The translations under genes were made by a program, and so were the position numbers. Of a stretch of DNA of 24,586 nt, positions 760 through 20,899 are shown one piece after another (the first letter of the stretch is position 1; each line of letters starts with the position of its first letter). The DNA comes from a virus (lineage: Duplodnaviria; Heunggongvirae; Uroviricota; Caudoviricetes): positions 1-24,586 of the IMG/VR virus record IMGVR_UViG_2698536454_000001. One strand, given 5' to 3'. Below the pieces are notes generated by a model. That model saw only the letters and a program-made list of their open reading frames with translations, was not told where the DNA came from and did no database searches.

Positions 760-1090
760 ATCCCCCGCAGAACGCAAAGCCGCGCAGCGCGCTCGGCAGT
801 CCGCCGCCGGTGAGCGCAAAATTGAACTGGTGCTGGATAAGCAGGAGCAGGAAATGCTGGCGCGGAACTGCGCCGCCCGGCGCCCTGGTCGCGATCCCTA
901 TGAAATGGCCGAGTACATCGCGCTGCTGATCCGCCAGGATGATGCACGTGTGCGCGGGCGCATAAAATCGATCAGCAGAAAACGTTGCGGTAAGTGCGGT
1001 GAGAGAGTTCCAGTTAATTCATGCCCGTGTAATGGTGACTCGCAATGCTGGGTGACTAAAGGCTGGCATGAAACGAAATTAATAGTGTGA
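752..1090 (+). CDS. hypothetical protein with basic N-terminal part and Cys-rich C-terminus (possible zinc ribbon)
   Basis: Track ORF 743..1090; GTG 752 has GGAGTG 7 nt upstream. Cys cluster RKRCGKCGERVPVNSCPCNGDSQC. GC-rich 5' half, ordinary 3' half. Confidence 0.55.
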   Translation: MAKSPAERKAAQRARQSAAGERKIELVLDKQEQEMLARNCAARRPGRDPYEMAEYIALLIRQDDARVRGRIKSISRKRCGKCGERVPVNSCPCNGDSQCWVTKGWHETKLIV

Positions 1091-1098
1091 CATGTCAC
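1087..1098. repeat. palindrome GTGACATGTCAC, copy 1 (overlaps the stop of 752..1090)
   Basis: Perfect 12-bp palindrome; shares an extended flank with copy 2. Confidence 0.9.
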
Positions 1099-1107
1099 GA
1101 AGGTGTT

Positions 1108-1320
1108 ATGCCAAAAATACGCTACGACCTTGAAGATATGAGAGATAACTCAGCAAATTTTCCGAAAGAGGTTAAATTTCTCATGCATAAGTATGGTTGC
1201 GCCAGGAGGGATATAGTTATCGACAGTCAGCACCCTTGCGGCGAGGATGTAATTTTCATTCGCGGTAAATGGGAAGGGTATCTTGACGAGAGTTTTTACG
1301 ATGAATTTGATGGACTTTGA
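1108..1320 (+). CDS. hypothetical phage protein (70 aa)
   Basis: ATG 1108 follows GAAGGTG; track ORF 1087..1320 begins at a GTG inside the palindrome. No recognisable motif. Confidence 0.5.
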   Translation: MPKIRYDLEDMRDNSANFPKEVKFLMHKYGCARRDIVIDSQHPCGEDVIFIRGKWEGYLDESFYDEFDGL

Positions 1321-1325
1321 ATACT

Positions 1326-1351
1326 GCCGCCAACTATGGCGGCTTTATTTT
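1326..1351 (+). terminator. intrinsic terminator
   Basis: GCCGCC-aactat-GGCGGC hairpin followed by TTTATTTT. Confidence 0.6.
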
Positions 1352-1385
1352 GCATGGTACTATTACCACAACGGTAACTATTACC

Positions 1386-1991
1386 ATGGTGGTTATGATG
1401 CCTGCTGAACCTAAAACCTATAAACGAAAATCAACGCAATTTAAGCCGCTCACAGCAATGCAGGAGGCTTATTGCCAGTCATACATCAAAACGCCTGAAA
1501 ACCAGACTCAGGCAGCGATTAATGCAGGATTCTCCCCAAATACAGCGGCAGTTAAAGCCAGTGTCATGATGCGCGATGAACGCATTCAAAAACGCATTGC
1601 CGAGTTGATGGAGGAGCGCAACAAACGAATGCGCGTCAGTGCTGATTACGTTCTCATGCGCCTGGTGGAGATCGACCAGATGGACGTGATAGACATCCTC
1701 AACGACGATGGGAGCCTTAAACCAATCCGTGAGTGGCCGAAAATCTGGCGCACTACGCTTAGTGGCTTTGATCTGTCATCGACCATCATGAACATGAACG
1801 AGGATTCGATAGAGACAATCCTCAAAAAAATTAAATGGCCTGACAAGGTGAAGAACCTCGAACTGATTGGTAAGCACGTCGACGTCAACGCATTCAAAGA
1901 ACGCCTGGATGTTAATGTGAATGTGACAATTGCTGATCGTATAGCGGCAGCCAGGAAGAGACTGAAAGAACGTCAGGATGGCAATCAGTGA
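1386..1991 (+). CDS. terminase small subunit
   Basis: Track ORF 1317..1991. Sits directly upstream of and overlapping (GTGA) the large terminase. N-terminal region (QAAINAGFSPNTAAVKASVMM) looks like the HTH-type DNA-binding part of Terminase_2/P27-like small subunits. Start uncertain among ATG 1386, 1395, 1398. Confidence 0.7.
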   Translation: MVVMMPAEPKTYKRKSTQFKPLTAMQEAYCQSYIKTPENQTQAAINAGFSPNTAAVKASVMMRDERIQKRIAELMEERNKRMRVSADYVLMRLVEIDQMDVIDILNDDGSLKPIREWPKIWRTTLSGFDLSSTIMNMNEDSIETILKKIKWPDKVKNLELIGKHVDVNAFKERLDVNVNVTIADRIAAARKRLKERQDGNQ

Positions 1992-3463
1992 CAGATACAG
2001 CGTTATCTCCTGAAGAGCAGTTAATCGAGGATATTGCAGGGTTCACTCACGATCCGCTTGGCTATGCCCTCTATGCGTTCCCGTGGGGGGAAGAGGGGAC
2101 TGAACTGGCACATGCTACCGGCCCACGTCAGTGGCAGGCTGATGCGTTCCGAGAGATACGTGATCACCTGCAGAATCCGGAGACGCGCTATCAGCCGCTT
2201 ATGCTGTCACGCGCTTCTGGTCACGGTATTGGTAAATCCGCATTTATCTCAATGCTGATCAACTGGGGCATGTCCACTTGCGAGGATTGTAAGGTCGTGG
2301 TGACCGCCAACACCGACAACCAGCTACGAACGAAGACCTGGCCGGAAATTATCAAGTGGTCGAACCTTGCTATCACGAAAGACTGGTTTACCTGTACCGC
2401 TACCGCGATGTACAGCAATGACCCTGGGCACGACAAGCGGTGGCGAGCTGACGCAATCCCCTGGTCTGAGCACAACACTGAGGCATTCGCCGGACTACAC
2501 AACGAGCGCAAACGCATCATCGTGGTATTCGATGAAGCGTCGAACATTGCGGATCTGGTGTGGGAAGTTGCTGAGGGTGCGCTTACGGACGAAGACACTG
2601 AGATTATCTGGGTGGCGTTCGGAAACCCTACACGTAACACCGGACGTTTCCGCGAATGTTTCCGCAAATATAAACACCGCTGGAAAACTGCGCAGATTGA
2701 CAGCCGAACGGTGGAAGGCACCAACAAACAGCAGTTGCAGAAATGGGTTGATGACTACGGGGAAGACAGCGACTTCGTTAAAATCCGTGTGCGCGGCATA
2801 TTCCCGGATGCATCTGAATTGCAGTTTATCCCTACCGGTCTTACTGATGAGGCAATGAAACGGGTGGTAACCGCTGCGCAGGTTGCACATGCTCCTGTGA
2901 TAATCGGCGTTGACCCGGCATACTCCGGCGTTGATGACGCTGTGATATACCTGCGGCAGGGTCTGCACAGTAAGGTGCTGTGGACTGGCAACAAGACCAC
3001 TGACGATCTGATAATGGCGAAGCGTATCGCTGACTTTGAAGACCAGTACCAGGCTGACGCGGTGTTCATCGACTTCGGTTACGGAACCGGTCTGAAGTCA
3101 ATCGGTGACGGTTGGGGGCGCACATGGCAACTTGTTCCGTTCGGTGGCGCGTCTACTGACCCGCAGATGCTCAACAAGCGCGGGGAGATGTTCAACTCAT
3201 GCAAGACATGGCTGAGGTTGGGCGGGATGCTGGATGACCAGGAGACAGCGGACGATCTGTCGGCGGCAGAGTACAAAGTTCGCGTGGACGGTAAAATCGT
3301 TATCGAACCGAAGGAAGATATCAAGGAGCGGCTTGGGCGTTCGCCGGGTAAAGGCGATGCGCTACTGCTGACGTTTGCGTTCCCTGTGTCGAAGCGTCTG
3401 CGAATTCCCGGGCAGCAGAACCAGCAAGGCAAGGCCATCACAGATTACGATCCCTATGCTTAA
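1988..3463 (+). CDS. terminase large subunit
   Basis: 491 aa. Walker A-like SRASGHGIGKSAF, Walker B-like IIVVFDEASNI, C-terminal acidic nuclease-type motif VIIGVDPAYSGVDDAVI. GTG start coupled to the small-subunit stop. Confidence 0.85.
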   Translation: MTDTALSPEEQLIEDIAGFTHDPLGYALYAFPWGEEGTELAHATGPRQWQADAFREIRDHLQNPETRYQPLMLSRASGHGIGKSAFISMLINWGMSTCEDCKVVVTANTDNQLRTKTWPEIIKWSNLAITKDWFTCTATAMYSNDPGHDKRWRADAIPWSEHNTEAFAGLHNERKRIIVVFDEASNIADLVWEVAEGALTDEDTEIIWVAFGNPTRNTGRFRECFRKYKHRWKTAQIDSRTVEGTNKQQLQKWVDDYGEDSDFVKIRVRGIFPDASELQFIPTGLTDEAMKRVVTAAQVAHAPVIIGVDPAYSGVDDAVIYLRQGLHSKVLWTGNKTTDDLIMAKRIADFEDQYQADAVFIDFGYGTGLKSIGDGWGRTWQLVPFGGASTDPQMLNKRGEMFNSCKTWLRLGGMLDDQETADDLSAAEYKVRVDGKIVIEPKEDIKERLGRSPGKGDALLLTFAFPVSKRLRIPGQQNQQGKAITDYDPYA

Positions 3464-3514
3464 TCCGCTGGTGGGGATAATGCTGCTGATATCCTCTGGT
3501 GAGGATAAAACAAA

Positions 3515-3537
3515 GCCAGCCCATGAGCTGGCTGTTT
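3515..3537. terminator. bidirectional intrinsic terminator between convergent genes
   Basis: GCCAGC-ccatga-GCTGGC hairpin with TGTTTG on the + side and an A-rich run (UUUGUUUUAU on the - strand) on the other. Confidence 0.65.
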
Positions 3538-3549
3538 GTGACATGTCAC
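3538..3549. repeat. palindrome GTGACATGTCAC, copy 2 (between the bidirectional terminator and the stop of 3554..3925)
   Basis: Perfect 12-bp palindrome, then GGTGTTAT. Confidence 0.9.
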
Positions 3550-3553
3550 GGTG

Positions 3554-3925
3554 TTATTGCTCGCTTAACTTCTGCTTCAGCAAGTAACCTTCAAGCATCC
3601 AGATTTTGTTTACGGCATTCTGCCGGGCAATCTTCCGACCAATTTCTGCATCAAAGTTTTCCTGGCTTGCACAGGCACTCTCTCCGGTGACGGTGAAGCC
3701 ATTGCGCAGCACCAGGACGCAGAACGTCAGCAGAGAAAGTGATTCGTGCGGCTGGTAGTTTACCTCTCCGCCAGTATGTTTCGCTTTTATGGCTTTGCCA
3801 AAGGCACCATCTTCTGCTGTGAAATATGCCTCCTGAGCAATAATGCCTTCGATATGGTCTGGCGTAACGCGCGGTGCCGTTTTGCCTTTCTCAACGATTT
3901 CTTTTTCGATTTGCTGGTCGTTCAT
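3554..3925 (-). CDS. conserved small phage protein (123 aa), possibly Gp49/Sf6 gp66-like
   Basis: ATG 3925 with AGGTGAG RBS. Family name is a weak recollection, not verified. Confidence 0.6.
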   Translation of the reverse strand: MNDQQIEKEIVEKGKTAPRVTPDHIEGIIAQEAYFTAEDGAFGKAIKAKHTGGEVNYQPHESLSLLTFCVLVLRNGFTVTGESACASQENFDAEIGRKIARQNAVNKIWMLEGYLLKQKLSEQ

Positions 3926-3936
3926 AATCTCACCTT

Positions 3937-3960
3937 AAAAAAATGCCCGGCGAACCGGGC
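3937..3960 (-). terminator. intrinsic terminator (minus strand) directly upstream of the 3554..3925 RBS
   Basis: GCCCGG-ttcg-CCGGGC hairpin followed on the minus strand by a run of seven U. Confidence 0.6.
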
Positions 3961-4123
3961 GAACTGGAAGCAATGAGTTATGCCTTCCGTGGCTGTACGG
4001 GTTTACAGCATGAAGTCATCGCAATGGCGTCCTGCTGTAAAAAGGGCGGTGATAGTCCTTCAAGGGAAACCATCACCGCCAAGCACCTGGAACTTCTGGC
4101 ATCACGGTCCTTAGGCGTGATTC

Positions 4124-4200
4124 TGGCGTGGCATGCAGGATTCGAACCTGCGACCAACCGCTTAGAAGGCGGTTGGTCTGTCCGACTGAGCTAATGCCAC
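4124..4200 (-). tRNA. tRNA-Arg (anticodon UCU), argU-like, with one C-C mismatch in the D-stem
   Basis: Reverse complement folds as a 77-nt cloverleaf: 7-bp acceptor stem GTGGCAT/ATGCCAC, anticodon stem ACCGC/GCGGT with loop CTTCTAA, T-arm GCAGG-TTCGAAT-CCTGC, encoded G-CCA 3' end. D-stem GCTC/GACC has one mismatch. Confidence 0.85.
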
Positions 4201-4627
4201 AACGCTGAGAGCACTTAGCCTGTTAAGGCACCACACTTTGTCGCGGCTCCATAAATGCTCTCATCGTTGTACCCTCGTCTCTTCCGAGGCGTCACACCGA
4301 ATCGCCGGGATGGTGAATCCCCGTGCGCGGAATAAAACCGCTCGACTTGCACATTCCGGCTACCTGGTTCGTTTGCCCGAGCAAGGGAGGGTGCCCCTTA
4401 AACGTATCCAGACCGCTATCGGCGCATGTGCCATACGCCGTACTGCTCAAAATAAAAGCTCACTCCACCTGTTCAATTTAACGACAAGCCAGTCAGGTTA
4501 GTAACCGGAATGAGCTCTTTGGTTACCTGAAAGGTAATAATTTGTGCGTTAAATGTCAACTATCTACGATAAATAAATCATATGTGGTTAAATTGGTAAT
4601 AATTTAATTGCGTACGGAGTCATTGAT

Positions 4628-4834
4628 ATGTGCATGGGTAGCTCACCATCAGTGCCTGCAACACCAGAAGTTCAGGCAGCACCACAGGAGCAGGATGCCG
4701 CCGTTGTTGATGCCCGCGACGAAGAAACACGTCGCCGTCGCGCTGCTGCTGGTCGTAGTTCTACGCTGCTTACCGGTTCTCAGGGCGACACATCAACCGC
4801 TAATACCAGCGGTAAAACGCTGCTTGGTCAGTAA
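4628..4834 (+). CDS. small Ala/Arg-rich protein (68 aa), first gene of the morphogenesis operon
   Basis: ATG 4628 follows GGAG; its initiation region CGGAGTCATTGA is duplicated before the portal start. Low-complexity sequence. Confidence 0.45.
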   Translation: MCMGSSPSVPATPEVQAAPQEQDAAVVDARDEETRRRRAAAGRSSTLLTGSQGDTSTANTSGKTLLGQ

Positions 4835-4848
4835 CCGGAGTCATTGAA

Positions 4849-6528
4849 ATGGCGGAAACAACTAAAGAGCGATTGAACAAACAGTTCGCACAACTTGAAA
4901 GCGAGCGTCAGTCGTTCGAGCCGCACTGGCGCGAGTTGAGTGATTACATCAACCCACGTGGTTCCCGCTTTCTGACTTCTGAGGTCAACCGTAACGATCG
5001 ACGCAATACACGCATTATTGATTCGACCGGGACTATGGCGGCGCGCACTCTCGCCAGCGGCATGATGTCAGGCATCACAAGCCCCGCGCGTCCGTGGTTT
5101 CGCCTGGCTACGCCAGATCCTGAAATGATGGATTATGGCCCTGTTAAGTTGTGGCTTGAGGCGGTGCAGAACCGCATGAACGATATGTTCAATAAGTCGA
5201 ATCTCTATCAGTCGCTGCCGCAGTTATACGGAAGCCTCGGCACATACAGCACTGGTGCAATGGCGGTGCTGGAGGATGACGAGGACATCATTCGCACAAT
5301 GCCATTCCCGATAGGCAGTTACTACTTGGCTAACTCACCTCGTGGCAGTGTGGACACCTGTTTTCGCAAGTTCTCTATGACTGTTCGTCAGCTTGTTCAG
5401 GAATTCGGACTAAATAACGTCAGCGAATCCGTAAAAAGCATGTGGGAAAGCGGCACCTACGAGAAGTGGATTGACGTGATGCATTCGGTTTACCCGAACA
5501 TTGACCGCGATACATCGAAGCTGGATAGCAAGAACAAGCCATTCAAATCGGTTTATTACGAGGTTGGTGGCGATAACGACAAGTTGTTGCGTGAGTCCGG
5601 ATTCGATGAGTTTCCAATTATGGCTCCGCGCTGGGAAGTTAACGGCGAAGATGTTTATGGATCATCATGCCCGGGTATGCTGGCGCTTGGACCTGTTAAG
5701 GCATTGCAGCTTCTCCAGAAGCGCAAGTCGCAGTTGATTGATAAAGCCACCAATCCGCCGATGGTTGCTCCGACTTCCCTCAAGAATCAGCGTGCCTCCC
5801 TTCTTCCTGGCGACATCACGTATATCGATCAGATTACTGGTCAGGATGGTTTCAGGCCTGCTTATCTGGTTAACCCTAGTACAGCAGATCTGGTGGCAGA
5901 CATTCAGGACACTCGCCAAATCATTAACAGCGCCTACTTTGTCGATCTGTTCATGATGTTGCAGAACATCAATACCCGCTCGATGCCTGTTGAAGCAGTG
6001 ATCGAAATGAAAGAAGAAAAACTTCTGATGTTGGGGCCGGTTCTGGAGCGTCTGAACGACGAATGTCTTAATCCTCTCATTGACCGCGCTTTCTCGATGA
6101 TGGTGCGTAAAAACATGCTGCCGCCACCGCCTGACGCGATGGAGGGTATGCCCCTGAAGGTCGAATACATTTCCGTCATGGCTCAGGCGCAGAAGTCTAT
6201 CGGCCTGTCCAGTCTGGCGTCTACGGTCAACTTCATTGGTCAACTTGCGCAAGCGAAACCAGAAGCTCTCGACAAACTCAACGTTGATCAGGCGATCGAT
6301 GCATTCGCTGATATGTCCGGAGTGTCTCCAACCGTCATTGTTCCGCAGGAACAGGTTGAGCAGGCTCGCCAGCAACGGGCACAGCAGCAACAGCAGCAAC
6401 AAATGATGGCGATGGGGATGGCGGCGGCACAGGGTGCCAAGACGCTAAGCGAAGCTAAAACTTCGGATCCGAGTGTTTTGTCAGCTATGGCGAATGCAGT
6501 TAGTGGTCAGGGTGGGCAATCACAATGA
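4849..6528 (+). CDS. portal (head-to-tail connector) protein, T7 gp8-like
   Basis: 559 aa. Gln-rich C-terminal tail (QQRAQQQQQQQMMAMGMAAAQGA...) and overall layout recall T7 gp8; followed by scaffold and capsid genes. Confidence 0.8.
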   Translation: MAETTKERLNKQFAQLESERQSFEPHWRELSDYINPRGSRFLTSEVNRNDRRNTRIIDSTGTMAARTLASGMMSGITSPARPWFRLATPDPEMMDYGPVKLWLEAVQNRMNDMFNKSNLYQSLPQLYGSLGTYSTGAMAVLEDDEDIIRTMPFPIGSYYLANSPRGSVDTCFRKFSMTVRQLVQEFGLNNVSESVKSMWESGTYEKWIDVMHSVYPNIDRDTSKLDSKNKPFKSVYYEVGGDNDKLLRESGFDEFPIMAPRWEVNGEDVYGSSCPGMLALGPVKALQLLQKRKSQLIDKATNPPMVAPTSLKNQRASLLPGDITYIDQITGQDGFRPAYLVNPSTADLVADIQDTRQIINSAYFVDLFMMLQNINTRSMPVEAVIEMKEEKLLMLGPVLERLNDECLNPLIDRAFSMMVRKNMLPPPPDAMEGMPLKVEYISVMAQAQKSIGLSSLASTVNFIGQLAQAKPEALDKLNVDQAIDAFADMSGVSPTVIVPQEQVEQARQQRAQQQQQQQMMAMGMAAAQGAKTLSEAKTSDPSVLSAMANAVSGQGGQSQ

Positions 6529-6821
6529 CAGATTACGAAGACGATCAACTGAAAGAAGAAAACGCCCGTAAGCAACGTGACATGGCGCAGCGTGAAATTG
6601 ATGACATTCGCTTTGTCATGAGCAGTGAACAGGGGCGTCGCGTTGTCTGGTCTGTGCTGGAGAAAGGCCGGGTGTTTTCCGCTATCTCTCCGATGGACGC
6701 TATGGCAATGGCATTTAATGAGGGGCAACGCAATCTGGCGCTGGAACTGTTTCAGCGCGTTATGGCGCATTGCCCTGAACAGTATTTGAAGATGGCCAAA
6801 GAGGCCAGTGAACAGGAGTGA
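6525..6821 (+). CDS. hypothetical head-assembly-region protein (98 aa)
   Basis: ATGA overlap with the portal stop; GGTGGG RBS; lies between portal and scaffold. Confidence 0.6.
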   Translation: MTDYEDDQLKEENARKQRDMAQREIDDIRFVMSSEQGRRVVWSVLEKGRVFSAISPMDAMAMAFNEGQRNLALELFQRVMAHCPEQYLKMAKEASEQE

Positions 6822-6823
6822 TC

Positions 6824-7519: not shown

Positions 7520-7533
7520 GAGAGGAAATGACA

Positions 7534-9729: not shown

Positions 9730-10334
9730 TGGCCTCTGTAGTAGAGATCTGCAATCGTGCGCTGTCCAATATTGGCAACAGCCGCAGCATTAACAGCCTG
9801 ACGGAAGCCAGCAAGGAAGCGGGGGAATGTTCGCTGCACTTTGAGGCCTGCCGTGATGCTGTGCTTTCTGATTTTGACTGGAACTTTGCTACCAAACGCG
9901 TGGCGCTTGCAGATACGAGCAATCCACCGCCTGACTGGGAATATGCGTACCAGTACCCGTCCGATTGTCTGCGCATTACTGAAATTATGCTTCCTGGTGT
10001 ACGCAATCCAACAGCAGCAATGCGCGTTCAGTACGAAGTTGGTGCAGACACCAACGGAACAGGAAAGTTGATCTACACAGACCAGCCGCAGGCATGGCTC
10101 AAGTATGTATCTCGCGTTTCAGATGTGAACATGTTTGATGCCATTTTTATGGAGGCGTTGGCCTGGCGTCTTGCGGCAGCTATTAACATGGCGCTGACTG
10201 GGAATGCAGACCTCGGTACGTTTGCCCTCAATATGTACAATCGCGTGATTCTTAGTGCTGGCTCGCATAGCCAGAATGAATCACAGGAACCACAGCCACC
10301 GGTTGACGAGTTTACCATTGCGAGGTTGTCCTGA
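9729..10334 (+). CDS. tail tubular protein A / adaptor (T7 gp11-like)
   Basis: 201 aa. N-terminus (VEICNRALSNIGNSRSINSLTE) matches the pattern I recall for T7 gp11 (VNDILASIGEPPVSTLEG); size and position fit. Confidence 0.65.
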   Translation: MASVVEICNRALSNIGNSRSINSLTEASKEAGECSLHFEACRDAVLSDFDWNFATKRVALADTSNPPPDWEYAYQYPSDCLRITEIMLPGVRNPTAAMRVQYEVGADTNGTGKLIYTDQPQAWLKYVSRVSDVNMFDAIFMEALAWRLAAAINMALTGNADLGTFALNMYNRVILSAGSHSQNESQEPQPPVDEFTIARLS

Positions 10335-12805
10335 TGGCTATCAGTTGGATCCAGCCCAGCTTTGCCGGTGGTGAGATTGGACCGTCGTTGTACGGTCGTA
10401 TCGACATGGCGAAGTACCAGGTGGCATTGCGCAAGTGCGATAACTTTATCGTGCGGCAGTATGGCGGCGTTGAGAATCGACCTGGTACGCGTTTTGTCGG
10501 TGCCGCCAAATACCCAAATCGGAAATGCCGCCTGATCCCGTTCCAGTTCTCGACTGTTCAGACCTATGTTCTGGAGTTCGGACACCAGTACATGCGCGTT
10601 ATCAAAGATGGTGCGTTGGTGCTGAACAGCAGCAATGTTATTTATGAAATTGCCACGCCATATACTGAAGCCGATCTGTTCCGAATTAAATTCACGCAAA
10701 GCGCCGACGTGCTTACGCTGGTTCACCCGGCATACCCGCCGAAAGAGTTGCGCCGCTATGCGCATGACAACTGGCAACTGGTTGATGTGGTAACGAAGAA
10801 CGGGCCATTTGAAGATATCAATATTGACGAGTCAGTGACGGTTTATGCCAGCGACAGCACCGGGACAATTACGTTAACGGCAAGCGCCTCTATTTTTGGC
10901 GCCGAGCAGGTAGGCAAATTGTTCTATCTGGAACAGCCTGCAGTGGATTCAGTGCCGGTATGGGAAACCAGTAAGAGTACGTCGATTGGCGATATTCGCC
11001 GTGCAGACAGTAACTACTATCGCGCCGTTACAGCAGGCAAAACAGGCACTTTGCGCCCTTCGCATACAGAAGGAACATCATGGGATGGCTGGGGCGGATC
11101 CGGTGATGATGATACTGGCATTGAGTGGGAGTATCTGCACAGTGGTTTTGGCATTGCCCGTATCTCTGCTGCAAATGGAACTACTGCAACTGCTGAGGTG
11201 ATTTCCTATATCCCTTCGCAGGTAGTTGGCGAGGATAATGCCAGCTATAAATGGGCTAAATATGCCTGGAATAGTGTTAACGGTTATCCTGGCACTGTTG
11301 TTTATTATCAACAACGTCTTTACTTCGCCGCATCGACTGCGTTCCCTCAGACTATCTGGGCCAGCCGTACTGGGGATTATAAGGATTTTGGCAAAAGCAA
11401 TCCTACGCAGGATGACGACAGAATTATCTACACCTATGCCGGGCGTCAGGTTAATGAGATCCGCCACCTGATTGATGTTGGTTCGCTGGTGGCGCTGACT
11501 TCCGGAGGTGAGTACGTCATCACCGGCGACCAGAACAAAGTATTAACCCCATCATCATTTGCATTCAGCTCTCAGGGATCAAATGGCTCGAGCAATGTCC
11601 CACCAATTGCCGTGGCGAATATTGCTCTGTTCGTCCAGGAGAAAGGCAGTGTTGTCCGTGATCTGGCCTACTCATTCGATGTTGACGGCTATCAGGGGAA
11701 CGACCTAACCATCCTTGCCAATCATCTTTTTCAGAAGCACAGCATTGTTGACTGGTGCTTCTCTATTGTCCCTTACTCCAGCGCCTTCTGCATTCGTGAT
11801 GACGGTAAATTACTGGTGATGACCTATTTGCGTGATCAGCAGGTTTTTGCATGGGCACCACAGTCCAGTACCGGAAAATATGAAAGTACATGCAGTATCA
11901 GCGAAAGCAATGAAGATGCGGTGTATTTCGTCGTTAACCGAACCGTTAACGGGCAAACAGTGAGATACATCGAGCGACTGTCAAGCCGTTTATTTACCAG
12001 CGATGAAGATGCTTTCTTTGTTGATTCTGGCCTTAGCTATGATGGAAGAAATACGTCTGACAGAACGATGACCATCACTGGTGGTTCTGGCGAATGGGAT
12101 TACCGCGCGGAATATACAATCAGTGTTTCTGGTGGTGCGTACTTCACCAGTAGTGATGTCGGTGCGCAACTACAGTTCCCTTATACCGTAACCGATCCTG
12201 ATACTGGCGATGAAGTGTCAAAAAAATTACGTTGCGACATTATTTCTGTAACCAGCAATACTGCTGTAGTGGTTCGTGCTAACAGGAACGTCCCGACATC
12301 CCTCAGGGATGTGGGCACCACGAACTGGCAGATGGCGCGCCGGACATTTGGAGGCCTGTCTCATCTTGAAGGACAGACCGTAAACATTCTCTCTGATGCT
12401 AATGTGGAGCCACAGAAAGTGGTTTCCGGAGGTGCCGTCACGCTGGAATCACCTGGGGCTGTAGTGCACATCGGCCTGCCAATAACTGCTGAATTCGAAA
12501 CACTGGATATCAACATTAACGGACAGGAAACGCTGCTGGACAAAAAACAGGTGATCCCGTCCGTTACTCTGGTTGTGAATGCCAGCCGCGGCATCTGGGC
12601 GACTACGCCCGGCGGTAAATGGTACGAATATCCACAGCGTGAATTCGAGTTCTACGATGATCCTGTTGATGACGCTACCGGAAAAGTAGAAGTGAAACTG
12701 GACAGTAACTGGGGCAAAAACGGACGTGTAAGAATCCGTCAGCTTGACCCGTTGCCGCTGTCTGTTCTTGCCGTTATTCCTCGCCTTACTGTTGGGGGGT
12801 TCTGA
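10334..12805 (+). CDS. tail tubular protein B / nozzle (T7 gp12-like)
   Basis: 823 aa, start coupled to the gp11-like stop (TGATG). Size and position fit gp12; no motif verified. Confidence 0.6.
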   Translation: MAISWIQPSFAGGEIGPSLYGRIDMAKYQVALRKCDNFIVRQYGGVENRPGTRFVGAAKYPNRKCRLIPFQFSTVQTYVLEFGHQYMRVIKDGALVLNSSNVIYEIATPYTEADLFRIKFTQSADVLTLVHPAYPPKELRRYAHDNWQLVDVVTKNGPFEDINIDESVTVYASDSTGTITLTASASIFGAEQVGKLFYLEQPAVDSVPVWETSKSTSIGDIRRADSNYYRAVTAGKTGTLRPSHTEGTSWDGWGGSGDDDTGIEWEYLHSGFGIARISAANGTTATAEVISYIPSQVVGEDNASYKWAKYAWNSVNGYPGTVVYYQQRLYFAASTAFPQTIWASRTGDYKDFGKSNPTQDDDRIIYTYAGRQVNEIRHLIDVGSLVALTSGGEYVITGDQNKVLTPSSFAFSSQGSNGSSNVPPIAVANIALFVQEKGSVVRDLAYSFDVDGYQGNDLTILANHLFQKHSIVDWCFSIVPYSSAFCIRDDGKLLVMTYLRDQQVFAWAPQSSTGKYESTCSISESNEDAVYFVVNRTVNGQTVRYIERLSSRLFTSDEDAFFVDSGLSYDGRNTSDRTMTITGGSGEWDYRAEYTISVSGGAYFTSSDVGAQLQFPYTVTDPDTGDEVSKKLRCDIISVTSNTAVVVRANRNVPTSLRDVGTTNWQMARRTFGGLSHLEGQTVNILSDANVEPQKVVSGGAVTLESPGAVVHIGLPITAEFETLDININGQETLLDKKQVIPSVTLVVNASRGIWATTPGGKWYEYPQREFEFYDDPVDDATGKVEVKLDSNWGKNGRVRIRQLDPLPLSVLAVIPRLTVGGF

Positions 12806-13269
12806 TGATCGACGTTCAAATTATTCCCTCTACCGAAGAGCATCTTCAGATGATTTTGCCGGATGTTCGTCAGGCTGATATTGACGAACTGTATGCGGTA
12901 TCGCTGATGACTACCGAAGATGCGCTGCGTGTTGGTCTTCGCACTGCGACTATGGCCTGGTCAGGATTTGCGAACGGAGAACTGGTAACCATGTTTGGCG
13001 TATCTCCGGCGTCAATGATCGGTGGCAATGGTACGCCATGGCTGGTAGGAACCAGCCGTATTGAAAAATATCAGAAGACATTTCTTCGCCACTGCCGCCC
13101 TGTATTGCAGCAGATGCTGGCAGTTTATCCGCGCCTGGAAAACTACGTCGACGAGCGAAACCATGTTGCCAAATCATGGCTGCACTGGCTTGGATTCAGG
13201 CTTGAAGAAGCCGCGCCTTATGGTGCTCTTGGTCTTAATTTCCACAGATTTCACATGGAGAGAAAATAA
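12805..13269 (+). CDS. hypothetical virion protein (154 aa), possibly gp13-like
   Basis: Translationally coupled between the gp12-like and gp14-like genes. Confidence 0.5.
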   Translation: MIDVQIIPSTEEHLQMILPDVRQADIDELYAVSLMTTEDALRVGLRTATMAWSGFANGELVTMFGVSPASMIGGNGTPWLVGTSRIEKYQKTFLRHCRPVLQQMLAVYPRLENYVDERNHVAKSWLHWLGFRLEEAAPYGALGLNFHRFHMERK

Positions 13270-13847: not shown

Positions 13848-16594
13848 TGCCTGTTGTTCCTACTACATCCGGACGCCAGGTGCAAAGTCGTGGTGTGCAA
13901 ACCGGTGGTTTTCAGACCTTCGATGTTCCTCAAGCAGGTCAGGTGCTGGCGAATGTCGCAGATCAGTATGCGGTGGCATATGGTGAAGCCAGGCAGAAAG
14001 CGAATGTTGCTATGGCTCAGGAGGCGTTACTGCAATTTAACCAATTTGCAGATGACCAGATTAACAGCCCTGAAAATGGGCTGATTTCTAAACAGGGTAA
14101 AAACGCTCTTGGTCAGAGTGACGCTGTTATGAAAAATATGCAGGAAAGGGCTCAGGCATTATTAGGCTCAATTCCTGAAAGTGAGGAAAGGAATAAATTA
14201 TCCTTTCAACTCCAGCAGTCTATGCAGTCTTATTACAATCAGGCACGTCGATATGAAGTTGGGCAGTTTCAGCAATTCCAAGATCAAACGTATTTGTCAG
14301 GAAATGCATTGGCTGTCACTCAGTCTGCGGGGCTATATAGCGATAACCAAGCATTTGTCGATTTAGCCAAGCAGCGATTTGAATCTATTGATCAATACGC
14401 TGATGCGCATGGGCTTCCTGATGAGTGGCGTGTTCAGCAGAAAACTCAGCTCAAGGAACAAATGGGGCAGCAAGCATGGATAGGAAATATCGCTCAAAAA
14501 TACAACGAGTTTCTTCAGGTTAATGGAGAGCCAGGGGATCTTGATGGTGTGAGTCGTGCAATATCACATGGTAATTCATTGGATGCTCGTGGTTTACGTA
14601 ATAATAACCCTGGTAATATTGAAGCGAGCAAATCTAACCCGTGGGAAGGTCAGATCGGTAGCGATGGACGTTTTGCAACGTTTGCTACCCCTGAGCATGG
14701 AATCCGCGCGTTGGGTAAAAATATGTTGTCTTACCAGCGTCAAGGCTATGATACCGTTAGCGAGATTGTTAATCGCTATGCTCCGGCTAGTGATGGTAAT
14801 AATACTGATGCTTATATTAGGGCATTGTGTGGTGAGCTTGGTGTTGGGGAGAATGATCAGCTTGATATCTCTAACCCAAAGACACTAGCTGCTTTATGTG
14901 CTGGGATTATTAAACACGAAAATGGCAGTATGCCTTATAGCACCGAACAGCTTGAAACTGGTATCTCGGCAGCCCTTGGTCTAACTAACCTTGATTCACC
15001 TAAGCGTTATACGGGCAATGCGGCATTTGACGCTATGAGCCCTCAAATGCAAATACAGGCATTGAGGCAGGCTAATGAGCTGAGAAATCAGTACCGCCAG
15101 CAGTATGCGGACCAGCTTAGCACCGTAGTTAAAGATGCATATTCAGCCCTTGATGAAGGATTGAAACCTGAGAAGTTACCTTCTGAGGACGATTTTATCC
15201 GGGCCAATGGTCCGCGCATTGGCGCTATGAAGTGGAAGGATATGCAGGCGCAGATACAATATGGAGGTGTCATTGGTGCCGCTAAAGACCTCACTCCAGA
15301 AGGACGACAAGACATTCTTGAACGTTTACGTCCACAGGATCCAAACGCTCCTGGATTTGCAGCTAACCAGCAACGCTGGGAGAAAATGCAGGCTAAATTT
15401 AAAGAGATGGATAGGGAGTGGGAGATTCAGCAGGGAAGAAACAGGTTCGTGTCTTCAATGCAAAATAACTTCCCGCTGGACCCGAACGACAAAAACAATC
15501 AGGCAGCGGTAGACCGTTATTTCGCGCAGGATATCGCGCCTTCGTTTTCCATATCTGATCCGCAGAGCATCAATACACTGGTCACCGTCACAACTAAAAG
15601 CGGCATGATACCAACTCAGGTTAAAACAATGCTTAACAGTGGAGCAACATCAAGAGATCCTGCGCTGGTTGTCCCGATGGCAAAATTCTACGGTCAGTTA
15701 TTCGATAATAATCCGGCAGCAGCGGCAACACTTGATAAAAGTACGATGGCATTTTACGGCAAGGTTTACGATTATTCCCGCGCTGGCGTGCCGGAGGATA
15801 AGGCTGTTGATATGGCTTACAGCCAGGTGTTCCAACAGGATGACCGAATGAAACAGATGCTTTCCACTGCCATGCGAGACAAAAAATATGTCGCGGCGAG
15901 GGCAACTGCTGCACAAAATAACGCCAGCAGTCTGACTTCCTTTGGTTCGTGGTCTCCGGATATTACCGATCCAGGAAAATCAAATGCGGCCTATCAGCGA
16001 GATTACCAGACAATTTACGATGCTAACTTTGTACAGACAGGTGGCGATGCAGAACAGGCTGAGAAAATGACCAATGCCATGATCAGAACCACCTGGGGAG
16101 TTTCTACGGTTAATGGCAAAGCAGAGGTTATGAAGTATGCACCTGAGGCATTGTACGGAGTAAATAATGGTGCTGGTAACTGGATACAGGGGCAGTGGGA
16201 GCAGGAAAAACGCGAGCTTAAATCAAAATCCTTTGGCGGTCCTCGCAGTGATACGGACTTAATACTTGTTTCTGATGGCCTTACGGCAAGGGATAGGAGT
16301 TATGCTGTTATGGTTTTACAGCCTGACGCAAACGGAGCGATAGAACCGAGAAATTATATTGGAGAAAATGGTCTCCCTGTTCGTTTCAAGCCGGATCAGC
16401 TGACATCTCCAATGTACAGGCAAACCATTCAGTTCCAGCAACAGCGTGTTGATGAGGCTAGAGTGCGGAGAGAAGGCAATCCGCTGCCGCAGTTCAGCAA
16501 TAAAGATGGATATACTCCTCCAGATCTGACCAAACCATTCGGTTATGGTTCAGCCAATTACCTTCCGAGCAATATATACGCAGGGGGCAAATAA
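13847..16594 (+). CDS. internal virion / ejection protein (gp15-like, 915 aa)
   Basis: AGGAGG RBS. Large Gln-rich protein in the gp15 position. Carries a conserved-looking block RGLRNNNPGNIEASKSNPWEGQ...FATFATPEHGIRALGKNMLSY. Confidence 0.65.
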   Translation: MPVVPTTSGRQVQSRGVQTGGFQTFDVPQAGQVLANVADQYAVAYGEARQKANVAMAQEALLQFNQFADDQINSPENGLISKQGKNALGQSDAVMKNMQERAQALLGSIPESEERNKLSFQLQQSMQSYYNQARRYEVGQFQQFQDQTYLSGNALAVTQSAGLYSDNQAFVDLAKQRFESIDQYADAHGLPDEWRVQQKTQLKEQMGQQAWIGNIAQKYNEFLQVNGEPGDLDGVSRAISHGNSLDARGLRNNNPGNIEASKSNPWEGQIGSDGRFATFATPEHGIRALGKNMLSYQRQGYDTVSEIVNRYAPASDGNNTDAYIRALCGELGVGENDQLDISNPKTLAALCAGIIKHENGSMPYSTEQLETGISAALGLTNLDSPKRYTGNAAFDAMSPQMQIQALRQANELRNQYRQQYADQLSTVVKDAYSALDEGLKPEKLPSEDDFIRANGPRIGAMKWKDMQAQIQYGGVIGAAKDLTPEGRQDILERLRPQDPNAPGFAANQQRWEKMQAKFKEMDREWEIQQGRNRFVSSMQNNFPLDPNDKNNQAAVDRYFAQDIAPSFSISDPQSINTLVTVTTKSGMIPTQVKTMLNSGATSRDPALVVPMAKFYGQLFDNNPAAAATLDKSTMAFYGKVYDYSRAGVPEDKAVDMAYSQVFQQDDRMKQMLSTAMRDKKYVAARATAAQNNASSLTSFGSWSPDITDPGKSNAAYQRDYQTIYDANFVQTGGDAEQAEKMTNAMIRTTWGVSTVNGKAEVMKYAPEALYGVNNGAGNWIQGQWEQEKRELKSKSFGGPRSDTDLILVSDGLTARDRSYAVMVLQPDANGAIEPRNYIGENGLPVRFKPDQLTSPMYRQTIQFQQQRVDEARVRREGNPLPQFSNKDGYTPPDLTKPFGYGSANYLPSNIYAGGK

Positions 16595-19500
16595 TGCCGA
16601 TATATGAACAGGATCCTAAAGAGTTGCTTGGCGAGGATATTCAGCAAATAGCAGCACCTGATGACAGTAATTTCTATATGGAAACACCTTCTTTGCTTTC
16701 TGCTGTGAACCCATTTACCAGTGATCAACGCGTTCAAAGGTCTAGACAAGCAGCATTTCGTATAGATAACACGCTGGGTAGCTTTATTGCCAGTGCTCCT
16801 TTCAGTCAGTTTGACAGGGTTGAAGGATATAACCCATTTGATAACGATGCAGCAGATATTAAAGGCTATGAAGATTTTGCAGATTCGTTTATCAACTCCG
16901 GTTCGCATGAAGAAACAATGGCAATTAAACATCGAATCGATAAGCAAAGAACAGATAGAGAATATCTATCTGAAATGGGGGGTGCTGGTACTATTTCAAG
17001 CTTAGCAATGGGAATGATAGACCCGGTTAATGTGGCTGCAATGTTCATCCCTGTAGGGGCGGTAGCGCGTGGAGGAAGTATTGCTGAGACGGCAGGGCGT
17101 TTTGCCCTGGCGAATGCTGCTGGTGGGGGAGTATCAGAAGCCGCATTACAGGCCACTCAGGAAGCTCGCTCACCGATGGAGAGCGTATCGAACGTTGTTG
17201 TTGATGCTCTCGTTGGTGGGATCCTTGGTGCTGGTGCACAGCTACTTGCTGGACCTAGCGCGCGCGAGGCAGTGGTTAACTCAGTAGGTAATCATTTGCG
17301 AGGTATGGATTCTCCTCAAAGCATTGGTGCAGCTCAGGTTTTCAATACCACACTCGATCAGGAACAGCTCGCTGGACTTGGACTTGCTAACAAAACGTTG
17401 AGTGTCACTCCTGCTGGCCGCTTGGCGCAATCACCATCTCTTGTCTCCCGTCAGATTAACCAGCAGCTTGCCGAAAATAACTATTTCTTCGCCAAAAATG
17501 ATGAGGGGTTGGCTACGTTTACGGCAGTCGAGACTAAGATTAAGCAATACGACGCCATGCTTTATAAGCAGATGGAAGCCACTCGTGATGCTTACCAGCA
17601 GTACAGCAAATCTGTTAGCGCCCGCGGCGTGAAGAGGATGAACTTTATTGATTTCAATGAAGCTGTTGGCATGGCTATGCGCCGTGGTGATCAGAGTGAT
17701 ATTCCTGAGGTTTCACAAGCAGCCGCCAGAATCCGCCCCATTTTCGAGACCACAAAAGCCCGTATGCAGGAACTGGGGATCCTTCCTGAGGATATCGATG
17801 TCGTGACGGCGAAAAGTTATCTTCCCCGCATTTATAAGTTCGATAAGATACTTTCCGACCGCACTGAATTCAGAGGGCGAATTGCCAACTGGATACAAGG
17901 GATTAGTGCCAAAGGTGCTGACAAAGCAGGTCAGCGAATTGAAAGGATAAATTCATTGCTAAAAACTGCAGAGGAATCGGCACCGCGCGCTGATGCTCTC
18001 GCTAGTGAAATCGCTGAAGCGGAGAAATGGTCTGGTAAAAAAATTCTACTCATGGAAGAACTGGATAAACGAAATAAGCTTATATCTCAGGAGACTGACA
18101 CACAGGCGCGTCTTACAAGAATAGAAAAAGAGTTGGCCGAGACTTCATCAGAAAAACTTCAGGCAAGAATGATGAAAGAAAGCTCTGACCTTAAAACACG
18201 CCTTGATGATATAGCGCAGGCAAAGAGTGAGCTTCCTGTCTATCAGCGTCATATGGAGTTGCTGGATAATCCACGGAAATATCGTTCTGAGCTTCGCCGA
18301 CTGCAAAAACGGGCAAATTCAACCACAAGGCTGAATGCAAGCCGCGAACGAGCACTGAAGCAGATGGAGCCTCTATCCCGAGAGGAAGCAGAGGACGCTG
18401 CTGACGAGATCGTGAATAAAATAATAGGCGCACCTTCCGGTCTTGTACCAGCCGATATTATCCCAGAGAGACTCGTTGGTCGGGCTGGTTTCACTAAAAG
18501 CAGAACGCTGCTTATTCCTGATGAGCGTATAGAAGATTTTCTTGAATCAGATGTTAACTACATCATGGAAAGTTATCTCCGGCAGGTGGCACCAGAAATT
18601 GAGCTGACTGCGCAGTTTGGCCGTAAAGATATGGGGGAGCAAATCCGTCAGGTTAGTGAGGAATATACCCGGCTAATAAAAGAGGCTAAAACACCTAAAC
18701 GACGTGCAGTTCTTGAGAAGCAACGGGAGGCTGATATTAGGGATATTACGGCTATGCGTGATCGACTGCTTGGTACTTACGGCGCACCTCAAGATCCACG
18801 CAGTTTCTTTGTTCGTGCCGGGCGAGTTGCTAGGAATATTAACTTCCTCCGTTTGCTTGGTGGAATGACTGTCTCCGCTGCAACTGATCTGATGCGACCG
18901 ATGATGCAGCATGGCCTGAGAAAATCTCTCGGACCAATGGTAAGCATGCTTAAAAATATGGACTCAGTGAAAATTGCAACCAGGGATTTGCGAGAAATGG
19001 CCGTTGGGCTTGATTATGTCCTGTCTACGCGTACAAAGGCTATAGCGGATCTTACTGACCCCTATAGCCGGAGAAGCGCCGCTGAGCGAGGTCTGAACTG
19101 GATGACGCAGAAATTCGGTAACTGGACGCTGATGAATCAGTGGAACAGCGCACTTAAATCATGGTCCGGGATGATAGTGCAGTCGAGGATACTTGACGCG
19201 GCTCGCCAAGTTTCTGCTGGTGGCACGCTCTCCAAAAGTGAAATGCGGAAGATGGCACAGGTCGGCATCAATGAAGATGTTCTGCGCCGAATTGGGGAGC
19301 AATTCGGGAAGCACGGAGAGGATATGGACGGGCTGTTAACCGGGCATAGTCATCTGTGGGATGACCGTTTCGCTAGAGAGATTTTCCAGTCTGCAGTGCT
19401 GAAAGATGTAGACTCAGTGATTGTAACGCCTGGCGTAGGTGATACACCGCTGTTTTTTAGTAAAGAAGGCTGGAAGATGATCACGCAGTTCAAAACGTTT

Positions 19501-19983
19501 ATCTTCGCACAGCATAACAGGGTGCTGGTATCTGGTATCCAGCAGGGCGATGCTGCATTCTATCTTGGCGCGCTTGGCACGATTGCACTTGGCTCAATGG
19601 TCTATATGATGAAACAGAAGTTAAGCGGTCGCGATATCGACTACAGCTGGAATAACCTTGTGAAAGAGGGGATCGACCGGGGCGGAATGCTTGGCTGGCT
19701 CTCTGAGCCGCTGAATACCGTTGAGAACATAAGCGGCGGTAGGTTTGGTCTTGGCGCGATGTTTGGTGCGCCTCCGGTATCAAGGTTTCAGAGTCGTAAT
19801 GCTATTGGTGCTTTACTTGGTCCTACCTTTGATCTTGGCGGTGATGCCGCGACGGTTGCGAATGGTGTACTTAACGGAGAATTTGACAGCCAGCAAACCC
19901 ACGCGGTCCGTAAAATGCTACCTTTTCAGAACCTGTGGGCGATATCACCGTTACTAAATAAAGTTGAAGAGCAGATGAAATAG
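16594..19983 (+). CDS. internal virion / ejection protein (gp16-like, 1129 aa)
   Basis: Start overlaps the upstream stop (TAATG). Largest gene, last of the operon, Gly/Ala-rich segments. Confidence 0.65.
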   Translation: MPIYEQDPKELLGEDIQQIAAPDDSNFYMETPSLLSAVNPFTSDQRVQRSRQAAFRIDNTLGSFIASAPFSQFDRVEGYNPFDNDAADIKGYEDFADSFINSGSHEETMAIKHRIDKQRTDREYLSEMGGAGTISSLAMGMIDPVNVAAMFIPVGAVARGGSIAETAGRFALANAAGGGVSEAALQATQEARSPMESVSNVVVDALVGGILGAGAQLLAGPSAREAVVNSVGNHLRGMDSPQSIGAAQVFNTTLDQEQLAGLGLANKTLSVTPAGRLAQSPSLVSRQINQQLAENNYFFAKNDEGLATFTAVETKIKQYDAMLYKQMEATRDAYQQYSKSVSARGVKRMNFIDFNEAVGMAMRRGDQSDIPEVSQAAARIRPIFETTKARMQELGILPEDIDVVTAKSYLPRIYKFDKILSDRTEFRGRIANWIQGISAKGADKAGQRIERINSLLKTAEESAPRADALASEIAEAEKWSGKKILLMEELDKRNKLISQETDTQARLTRIEKELAETSSEKLQARMMKESSDLKTRLDDIAQAKSELPVYQRHMELLDNPRKYRSELRRLQKRANSTTRLNASRERALKQMEPLSREEAEDAADEIVNKIIGAPSGLVPADIIPERLVGRAGFTKSRTLLIPDERIEDFLESDVNYIMESYLRQVAPEIELTAQFGRKDMGEQIRQVSEEYTRLIKEAKTPKRRAVLEKQREADIRDITAMRDRLLGTYGAPQDPRSFFVRAGRVARNINFLRLLGGMTVSAATDLMRPMMQHGLRKSLGPMVSMLKNMDSVKIATRDLREMAVGLDYVLSTRTKAIADLTDPYSRRSAAERGLNWMTQKFGNWTLMNQWNSALKSWSGMIVQSRILDAARQVSAGGTLSKSEMRKMAQVGINEDVLRRIGEQFGKHGEDMDGLLTGHSHLWDDRFAREIFQSAVLKDVDSVIVTPGVGDTPLFFSKEGWKMITQFKTFIFAQHNRVLVSGIQQGDAAFYLGALGTIALGSMVYMMKQKLSGRDIDYSWNNLVKEGIDRGGMLGWLSEPLNTVENISGGRFGLGAMFGAPPVSRFQSRNAIGALLGPTFDLGGDAATVANGVLNGEFDSQQTHAVRKMLPFQNLWAISPLLNKVEEQMK

Positions 19984-20424
19984 CTATTCACAATTAGTGA
20001 TGGCGTATGTATCAAATATATTGCCATCACTAAATACATACCTATACTCAATCTCTCCGCCAAGGTGAATAAATGCTTTCATTTGCCTGTTGGAGCAAAT
20101 GCTCGATTTTGAATAATTTCGCATTACACTCTTTAATTTATTTTCTAAGGTTACATCACCATTATAAACTTTTGATAAATAGCTGTTGTTGTAATTAAGA
20201 TGCGCTACAACTAAAAGTTTGTTTAGTATTGCATTTATTGAAACAATAGACATATTATCATTCAATTTTATGGGAAGTGACTTTCCTGCTTCTGATGCGA
20301 TTTTGTTTGCATGTGCACACATATCCTCATTTATTAAATTCTTAAAACATATGTCGTTTGCAAACGAAAAAATTGGTAGGATAAACAAAACGGTAGCTGT
20401 AATAGCGTGCATCGGCTTAATCAT
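19984..20424 (-). CDS. secreted/periplasmic protein of unknown function (146 aa)
   Basis: N-terminal signal peptide (MHAITATVLFILPIFSFA, then NDI); four Cys in the mature part; visibly AT-rich coding sequence. Start could be ATG 20424 or 20412. Confidence 0.6.
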   Translation of the reverse strand: MIKPMHAITATVLFILPIFSFANDICFKNLINEDMCAHANKIASEAGKSLPIKLNDNMSIVSINAILNKLLVVAHLNYNNSYLSKVYNGDVTLENKLKSVMRNYSKSSICSNRQMKAFIHLGGEIEYRYVFSDGNIFDTYAITNCE

Positions 20425-20436
20425 TAGGTGACCTTT

Positions 20437-20886
20437 ATGTTCAAGAAGATGATCAACAGATTAATCGGTGGTAAGGAGGTTAGCAATAAAATTCAACCTC
20501 TTATCTTTAAGGATAACTTTTCAGCTTTTGAGTATGCGTGTAAGTATCTTGACACAAGCCTTTCAGCCAATAAACCAATGCCAGCCATCATCATACCTGG
20601 CCCCAGTGGGGAACAGCCAGTTTTGCTAGATTCTGGAAGACAAAGGGCAATGCTGAAGGTGTGCTCAGCTGATGGTGGATTTTTTGTTATTGCCGATTCA
20701 TCTTACAGCAAAGGACCAAAGCTGAGGATTGGTGATCTTGTTGCTTGGTTGCCTGTGAGTTATGCCGAAGAATTAACGGATAAAATAGAAGATCCTCGCT
20801 CCGCTATGGTTGGCTTGATATTGGGAACCATTCATCCTGAACTAACATCTACTGGCTGGAAGGGTAAAGAAAGATTTCGCAAGTAG
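20437..20886 (+). CDS. soluble protein of unknown function (150 aa)
   Basis: Track ORF 20428..20886; ATG 20437 follows AGGTGA. AT-rich. Divergent from the secreted-protein gene with starts only about 12 bp apart. Confidence 0.6.
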   Translation: MFKKMINRLIGGKEVSNKIQPLIFKDNFSAFEYACKYLDTSLSANKPMPAIIIPGPSGEQPVLLDSGRQRAMLKVCSADGGFFVIADSSYSKGPKLRIGDLVAWLPVSYAEELTDKIEDPRSAMVGLILGTIHPELTSTGWKGKERFRK

Positions 20887-20887
20887 C

Positions 20888-20899
20888 GTGACATGTCAC
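20888..20899. repeat. palindrome GTGACATGTCAC, copy 3 (between the stop of 20437..20886 and a terminator)
   Basis: Perfect 12-bp palindrome 1 nt after TAG and 1 nt before the terminator hairpin. Confidence 0.9.

Follow-up and report, generated by a model that had tools for sequence, protein, structure and literature searches.

Introduction

In phage lambda, Q occupies the position before the lysis genes and terS, and LacI bound at O3, at the 3' end of lacI, acts as a roadblock that gives a truncated, tmRNA-tagged product. The site of the MatP/matS system is a 13-bp consensus, GTGACRNYGTCAC, whose half-sites are separated by a 3-nucleotide (nt) spacer (GTGAC-N3-GTCAC) (PMC6907758, PMC3603311), and prophages have been reported to avoid true matS (PMC3603311). 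Here, we describe a perfect 12-bp palindrome, GTGACATGTCAC, in a 24,586-nt stretch of viral DNA (IMG/VR record IMGVR_UViG_2698536454_000001, positions 1 to 24,586; referred to as the window) that, judged from its sequence, is the late region of an epsilon15/phiV10-like Escherichia coli prophage (genus Uetakevirus). The palindrome has GTGAC and GTCAC half-sites identical to those of matS, a likeness that the initial annotation of the window missed. One of its copies is fused to the stop codon of a small gene (positions 752 to 1090) for a protein with a ribbon-helix-helix (RHH) fold and a cysteine-rich (Cys-rich) module. We consider it fairly likely that the three 12-mers (GTGAC-NN-GTCAC) are cognate sites for a homodimer of this protein; more tentatively, we propose that they would act at the boundaries of transcription units.

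Pairing of a palindrome with one gene family

Exact copies of GTGACATGTCAC lie at three places in the window (copies A, B, and C; Table 1), versus none in 100 dinucleotide-preserving shuffles of it, and the initial description of a nonrandom palindrome in three copies therefore stands. Counting across a full prophage leads to the same number, as the closest complete prophage, L002, has these three copies only in about 40 kb. The copies abut or overlap stop codons, and copies B and C are adjacent to terminator stems, both as originally described (Table 1). CRP and LexA were rightly set aside, since the motif reads TGTGA-N4-TCAC and the consensus sequences are TGTGA-N6-TCACA for CRP and CTGT-N8-ACAG for LexA.

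For a survey of gene-site pairing, loci were fetched by protein homology and not by the motif. Homologues of the RHH protein were found by tblastn in N15 (gp46), phiKO2 (gp45), P2-like Yersinia myoviruses, Vibrio siphophages, and others. The N15, phiKO2, and P2-like Yersinia homologues, at 33 to 45% protein identity, have the palindrome over the stop codon. About 77 of 80 close loci, in which the palindrome corresponds to copy A, and 77 of 80 distant ones have its first base immediately ahead of the TGA of the family gene. The remaining loci comprise a contig end, a fusion-deletion, and genomes with sites elsewhere. N15 and phiKO2 each contain three copies of GTGACTGGTCAC or its complement, which are located over the TGA of the homologue, inside repA, and downstream of gene 33. 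A P2-like Yersinia phage carries GTGACGCGTCAC over the stop codon of the homologue, and the distant member L301 carries GTGACAGGTCAC at the same place. Another distant member, L299, has GTGAC-A-GTCAC, with a 1-nt spacer, over the stop codon and two further 1-nt-spacer copies within 20 kb, such that the length of the spacer has shifted together with the protein. These L299 11-mers (GTGAC-N-GTCAC) are at 10315, 18059, and 19448, in a P22-like context that includes a tailspike head-binding domain and NinG.

Relatives in Morganella, Providencia, Vibrio, and Photobacterium have two or three GTGAC-NN-GTCAC sites near the gene and not at its stop codon. These sites are either 19 to 100 nt upstream of the gene or 180 to 290 nt downstream, ahead of lysis genes, and some are 10 to 20 nt ahead of the terS ribosome-binding site. 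Family members without the stop overlap have their sites within about 470 nt of the gene. In L297, the order is family gene, site, terminator, and downstream genes, and the full arrangement of stop codon, motif, and hairpin recurs in unrelated contexts, namely L055 and a Photobacterium phage. In L291, two GTGACCTGTCAC sites 32 bp apart (10506 to 10549) bracket an AT-rich, promoter-like stretch (aataggctatttatataaat) upstream of lysis genes, and the first of them overlaps the TGA of a small open reading frame (ORF) that follows the family gene. In the Morganella and Providencia loci L293 (17846 to 17857) and L295 (17357 to 17368), the head gene after a Bbp16-family gene appears to start at the central ATG of a palindrome.

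The spacing between the arms is strictly kept. In 2.74 Mb of homology-fetched loci, GTGAC-N2-GTCAC was observed 282 times against 2.6 expected, whereas spacers of 0, 1, 3, 4, and 7 nt had no occurrences in the same 2.74 Mb. Across 289 loci, the N2 (or N1) spacer is found in approximately 450 sites, versus a single N3 site. The central dinucleotide is lineage specific: AT goes with the protein sequence RK[ILV]E[LI]VLD, TG with RRDW[VIL]LE, and GC with NE[IV]RARLE.

The protein encoded at 752 to 1090 belongs to phrog_536, which is labeled "transcriptional regulator"; its other database name is "hypothetical protein." Searches of Pfam, NCBIfam, PADLOC, and the PDB returned no sequence match for the 112-amino-acid (aa) protein, and PADLOC matched none of its gene neighbors. 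A confident AlphaFold model has an RHH fold followed by a Cys-rich C-terminal module, and the core of beta-strand, helix, and helix that defines the RHH superfamily is present. The Cys-rich module probably binds zinc. Foldseek searches against the PDB and viral models gave nothing informative except one RHH-like match. The family comprises 246 clusters at 50% identity and is nearly always a stand-alone protein of 100 to 135 aa. In the window, its gene is the last early-right gene ahead of terS and the late genes.

Conservation of the sites at mosaic junctions

In their terminase genes, epsilon15, SPN1S, and Tyrion share about 80% identity with the window, and each of these phages has three exact 12-mers at positions syntenic with A, B, and C. 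In all three, a terminator follows 22 nt past copy A. phiV10 has exact copies B and C and a copy A with 1 mismatch that spans the ends of the deposited record. A physical end of the phiV10 genome within copy A was considered for this reason and rejected, as the record starts merely at the base after the stop codon of the last gene. When four to five lineages were aligned on the motif, none of its 12 columns varied at any of the three sites. Of the 48 flank columns, 26 are invariant at site A, whose left flank is coding, as against 11 at site B and 2 at site C. Because the motif columns are invariant while the flanks diverge, the alignment indicates that purifying selection acts on the 12-mer itself. 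Copy B carries a 1-nt mutation in 6 of 80 relatives; in Tyrion, it has been kept although the adjacent hairpin has decayed.

The same sites mark the boundaries of genes that vary among relatives, as had been suspected, and flanking genes differ at all three of them. Homology between the window and its relatives ends at 1100, two bases past copy A, and resumes at 1300, and the ORF at 1108 to 1320 is therefore a cassette that is present in some genomes and absent in others; phiV10 has only a remnant of it. Breaks in homology fall within 2 to 3 nt of copies A and C, and variable cargo abuts both. The 102 relatives compared at site C have the motif and terminator in common but carry at least seven unrelated families of left flank and several right flanks, and other genes (at least seven different insertions) take the place of the cargo ORFs beside copy C. 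The minus-strand gene at site B differs among genomes, with its stop codon kept 3 to 4 nt from the motif, and in some relatives the block from 3463 to 3936, comprising the minus-strand gene, copy B, and the hairpin, is swapped as one unit. In one relative (L060, about 12881 to 12930), only the left half of copy B (GTGACAT) is present, joined to sequence that is normally upstream of the minus-strand gene, which places a deletion endpoint inside the palindrome. A mobile cassette flanked by sites was also considered and rejected, as no half-sites occur near the 5' end of the gene in eight lineages.

The initial annotation had listed junction scars of module exchange or a homing-type insertion among the candidate roles. 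The breakpoints 2 to 3 nt from copies A and C agree with that proposal, but the syntenic island is invariant among genomes that are about 80% identical, and the 5' end of the gene is free of half-sites. We interpret the motif at the exchange points as a conserved functional island and not a scar. Being invariant, the site would therefore also serve as a short stretch of homology where modules exchange.

Genomic setting of the three copies

Gene order in the window runs from the end of the early-right operon through terS, terL, the minus-strand Phage_gp49_66 gene, tRNA-Arg, and the portal gene to the genes for internal virion proteins, followed by cargo genes and an antirepressor region (Table 1). 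The divergent cargo pair at 19984 to 20886, at the end of the structural operon, has a GC content of about 0.41, and PADLOC matched neither ORF. The motif itself supplies neither the GC-rich stem nor the U-tract of a terminator, and the stems at 20900 to 20917 and 3533 to 3514 are outside it.

Table 1. Coordinates of the palindrome copies and neighboring features in the window (., no strand assigned)
Feature	Position	Strand	Remarks
Copy A, GTGACATGTCAC	1087..1098	.	Includes TGA stop (1088-1090) of RHH gene, ORF 743/752..1090
Copy B	3538..3549	.	Convergent junction of terL and minus-strand gene; 4 nt from that gene's TAA (complement of 3554-3556) and 4 nt from terminator stem (3533-3514)
Copy C	20888..20899	.	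End of structural-gene operon; starts 1 nt after TAG (20884-20886) of ORF 20428..20886
RHH + Cys-rich module gene, 112 aa	752..1090	+	epsilon15 gp49 / phiV10 p55 / N15 gp46 family, phrog_536; proposed palindrome binder
Small ORF, 70 aa, phrog_1541	1108..1320	+	Present/absent cassette between copy A and pre-terS terminator
Intrinsic terminator hairpin + T-run	1326..1343	+	Between RHH gene region and terS; z = -3.96
terS (1317/1355-1991) + terL (1988-3463)	1317..3463	+	Transcription unit between copies A and B
Terminator hairpin of minus-strand gene	3514..3533	-	T-run 3513-3504
Phage_gp49_66 family gene (PF13876; N4 gp49 / Sf6 gene 66)	3554..3925	-	Neighbor of copy B
tRNA-Arg, anticodon TCT	4124-4200	-	Between terminase genes and portal gene
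Cargo ORF, 146 aa, phrog_8772	19984-20424	-	Low GC; function-unknown phrog
Cargo ORF, 152 aa, phrog_9944	20428-20886	+	Low GC; function-unknown phrog; abuts copy C
Intrinsic terminator hairpin + T-run	20900..20917	+	Directly past copy C

An extended flank shared by copies A and B (GTGACATGTCACG..GGTGTTAT), which the initial annotation had pointed out, does occur in the window but has no conserved equivalent in epsilon15, Tyrion, or SPN1S. At copy A, it is made up of the Shine-Dalgarno sequence and start codon (ATG) of the next ORF, and at copy B, it contains the stop codon of the minus-strand gene; the resemblance is probably coincidental. Two candidates for additional sites were rejected. A near-copy at 6577 (GTGACATGGCGC, 2 mismatches) lies within the coding sequence of a Bbp19-family gene and is absent in epsilon15, which leaves chance or coding conservation as its origin. 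The end of the Rz gene offered a putative fourth site, D (GTGACATGGCAT in epsilon15 and GTGACATGTCAT in SPN1S), but phiV10, the closest E. coli prophage, and Tyrion lack a conserved copy.

Several other features of the region were noted. Direct repeats of the ATTACCAC type (ggtactattaccacaacggtaactattaccacgg) are located at the start of terS, directly past the terminator (window 1355 to 1400; also L001, 68 to 120), and a binding site for the prophage repressor is annotated in the epsilon15 record at the corresponding position. A repressor site at the start of terS suggests that the late operons may be directly controlled by the repressor. Minus-strand terminator-like hairpins at 3960 to 3945 and 4080 to 4045 flank tRNA-Arg. 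At 1,129 aa, the last large virion gene (16594 to 19983; DUF919) exceeds the 824-aa phiV10 counterpart by about 300 aa, and the homology to phiV10 disappears in this region. On the minus strand, a 62-aa ORF at 20923 to 21111, with a signal-peptide- or lipoprotein-like N terminus and a Gly/Arg-rich tail, converges on the terminator past copy C.

Possible roles of the protein and its site

We infer that the protein binds the palindrome. In the proposed arrangement, one dimer would occupy each palindrome, its beta-ribbon lying over the variable center while conserved basic residues from the N-terminal helix contact the constant GTGAC arms. We favor one dimer per palindrome because the arms are constant, the center is free, and the spacer is fixed by lineage; because the site is tied to one RHH family among neighbors that are not shared; and because of the predicted fold. 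An operator for a phage-encoded dimeric regulator had already been listed among the candidate roles, although no binder was identified at that stage, and this role is now favored by the pairing of gene and site in temperate phages of the podovirus, siphovirus, and myovirus types. Where genomes recombine constantly, no linkage of a protein with its cis site could be tighter than a fusion of that site to the stop codon.

More weakly, we infer that the bound protein would act on RNA polymerase as it crosses the boundaries of transcription units, because the Uetakevirus sites are all at the 3' edges of such units beside terminators and the gene is the last before the late genes. Read in the direction of the gene that ends there (plus strand for A and C, minus strand for B), each of these sites separates a stop codon from an intrinsic terminator. 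Copy A follows the early-right operon, ahead of terS; copy B is at the junction of terL and the minus-strand gene; and copy C ends the structural operon. The protein could be a bidirectional roadblock or insulator, which at its own stop codon would also provide autoregulation, as for LacI at O3, or it could be a Q-like switch that allows read-through into the late genes.

Not all observations agree with cognate sites of an RHH dimer that act at unit boundaries. A simple consensus scan found no sigma-70-like promoter near any of the three copies, and copy B together with its cassette is absent in 13 of 80 relatives, which have an unrelated block instead, so that it is dispensable there. The apparent tracking of the palindrome center with the sequence of the predicted DNA-reading beta-strand is suggestive and involves three lineages only. 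With regard to function, the N15-type sites are not beside terminators, and one is inside repA; in the Morganella and Providencia phages, one site separates two head genes, a position in which a strong roadblock would be harmful; and P2-like phages usually have a single site. N15, phiKO2, and the P2-like phages also have their own annotated late regulators (Q-like or Ogr-like), and the family is therefore not a universal late switch. Overall, several facts argue against a single simple role.

The main alternative is an architectural role like that of MatP, in which the phage protein would bridge or position phage DNA or influence host SMC complexes and would not act on transcription. An RHH fold may be common to MatP and the phage family, without detectable sequence similarity between them. 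Homology to MatP was looked for with negative outcome: hhalign comparisons with E. coli MatP gave probabilities of 0.1 to 0.2%, and MatP did not appear in PDB profile searches or the Pfam scan. The window contains no N3 site at 0 mismatches, and all copies are 12-mers with a 2-nt spacer. Given this spacer, the near absence of 13-mers, and the lack of similarity to MatP, the motif does not qualify by sequence as a matS site, nor can the protein be shown to be a MatP homologue. Vibrio phage K233 (L008), which has three 12-mer sites, also contains a lone 13-mer, GTGACACCGTCAC (19491 to 19503), that matches the matS consensus of the host and lies over the TGA of a small ORF. We regard architectural organization as possible but unlikely, since besides having no detectable homology to MatP, the protein is without the four-helix bundle and the coiled coil, and many family members have a single site, which would permit no bridging within a genome. 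A broader version, which we hold to be rather doubtful, would make the pair an unrecognized protein-plus-site module of temperate podoviruses, siphoviruses, and myoviruses of Enterobacteria and Vibrios. Such a module would be a distant functional analogue of MatP/matS with the same arms and a deliberately different spacer, organizing or bridging phage DNA during infection or manipulating the machinery that organizes the host chromosome (MukBEF or other SMC complexes) or the divisome link, with its site welded to the stop codon against separation by recombination.

It is improbable that a host protein, MatP or another enterobacterial factor, binds the sites and that the association with the phage gene is incidental. 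The arms do equal those of matS, and the hosts (Escherichia, Salmonella, Klebsiella, Yersinia, and Vibrio) are in groups for which MatP is reported; however, one N3 site against about 450 N2 or N1 sites, together with the reported avoidance of true matS by prophages (PMC3603311), speaks against such a factor, which would also leave the near-universal stop overlap with one phage gene family unexplained. A mere recombination linker for module exchange, with no dedicated protein, seems to us more improbable still. It would account for the breakpoints near copies A and C, the variable flanking genes at all three sites, and the L060 deletion endpoint inside copy B, but a stretch of 12 bases offers very little length for homologous exchange, genomes about 80% identical keep the sites unchanged and in syntenic positions, and the arms are kept in phage types without common neighbors, with a strictly constrained spacer and no 5' half-sites. 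The least credible possibility, to which we give very little weight, is an element that works in RNA, the transcribed palindrome being a processing signal or an auxiliary to termination. Uetakevirus sites are indeed transcribed, each shortly before the terminator hairpin of the gene that ends there. However, the palindrome could form a stem of only 4 bp, and the regional z-scores come from the terminators; perfect twofold DNA symmetry, a free center, and a variable spacer fit a protein dimer on DNA; and the N15-type sites have no adjacent structure, while copy B of Tyrion persists beside a decayed hairpin. The RNA processing site of the initial annotation finds no support on similar grounds, as the hairpin is limited to 4 bp, the arms stay fixed while the center and spacer change, and some copies are in coding sequence (N15 repA).

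If the palindromes are cognate sites of the RHH dimer, a candidate DNA target can be assigned to a small, uncharacterized protein family in epsilon15, phiV10, SPN1S, N15, phiKO2, and P2-like phages. The same reading would explain the invariant island of sequence at the mosaic breakpoints where cargo is swapped, and a stop-codon-embedded site across unrelated genome architectures would be an unusual way of keeping a protein and its cis site together. Should the protein control read-through at operon ends, it would fill a gap in the late-gene timing of epsilon15-like phages. The literature searched, with the epsilon15 genome paper outside its reach, contained neither GTGACATGTCAC nor the N15/P2-type variants in a phage context, and the pairing of gene and site is apparently not yet described.

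Comparison with known systems

RHH repressors such as Arc, Mnt, CopG, ParG, and the antitoxins differ from the phage protein in several respects. The phage sites are at no recognizable promoter; instead, they are found at gene 3' ends and terminators, in coding sequence, or ahead of ribosome-binding sites. Each is a single 12-bp palindrome, whereas RHH repressors use tandem half-sites about 11 bp apart, and the phage protein has an additional Cys-rich domain. Mycobacteriophage stoperators are numerous asymmetric sites to which the prophage repressor binds. A resemblance to them does not hold, as there are only three sites, these are symmetric, and the epsilon15 record annotates different repressor sites.

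The likeness to lambda Q and qut is one of position. In both cases, the regulator is the last early-right gene, its site follows immediately downstream, and a terminator and the late genes come next. The window has exactly this order (752 to 1090, copy A, the terminator at 1326 to 1343, and terS), as does epsilon15; the late genes after the terminator begin with terS in the Uetakevirus group and with lysis genes and then terS in the Vibrio phages. No Pfam or NCBIfam Q family matched the phage protein, no pause element was identified, and the simple consensus scan found no sigma-70-like promoter near copy A of the kind that would belong to a Q-type late promoter and pause. Unlike in lambda, further sites are located after operons and, for copy B, on the far side of a hairpin, and homologues are also present in phages that have their own Q-like or Ogr-like regulators.

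LacI at O3 offers a different possible analogy, that of a DNA-binding protein whose site overlaps the end of its own coding sequence, although the folds of the two proteins are unrelated. The palindrome also resembles the mosaic "linker" sequences of temperate phages in being a short conserved sequence exactly at module breakpoints. Unlike such linkers, it is a strictly constrained palindrome that is tied to one protein family and is kept where no adjacent modules are common.

MatP/matS, the organizer of the Ter macrodomain in E. coli, differs from the phage pair in spacer length, which in the phages measures 2 nt (or 1 nt, in one lineage) and not 3 nt, and in the protein, where a Cys-rich C-terminal module stands in place of the four-helix bundle and coiled coil of MatP. 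The phage system is also phage borne and has one site fused to the stop codon of its own gene. Nevertheless, both systems combine a short perfect palindrome with a few dispersed sites per replicon, in the phages, too, the site would be read by an RHH protein, and the matS-identical arms raise the question of cross talk with, or avoidance of, the host Ter organizer.

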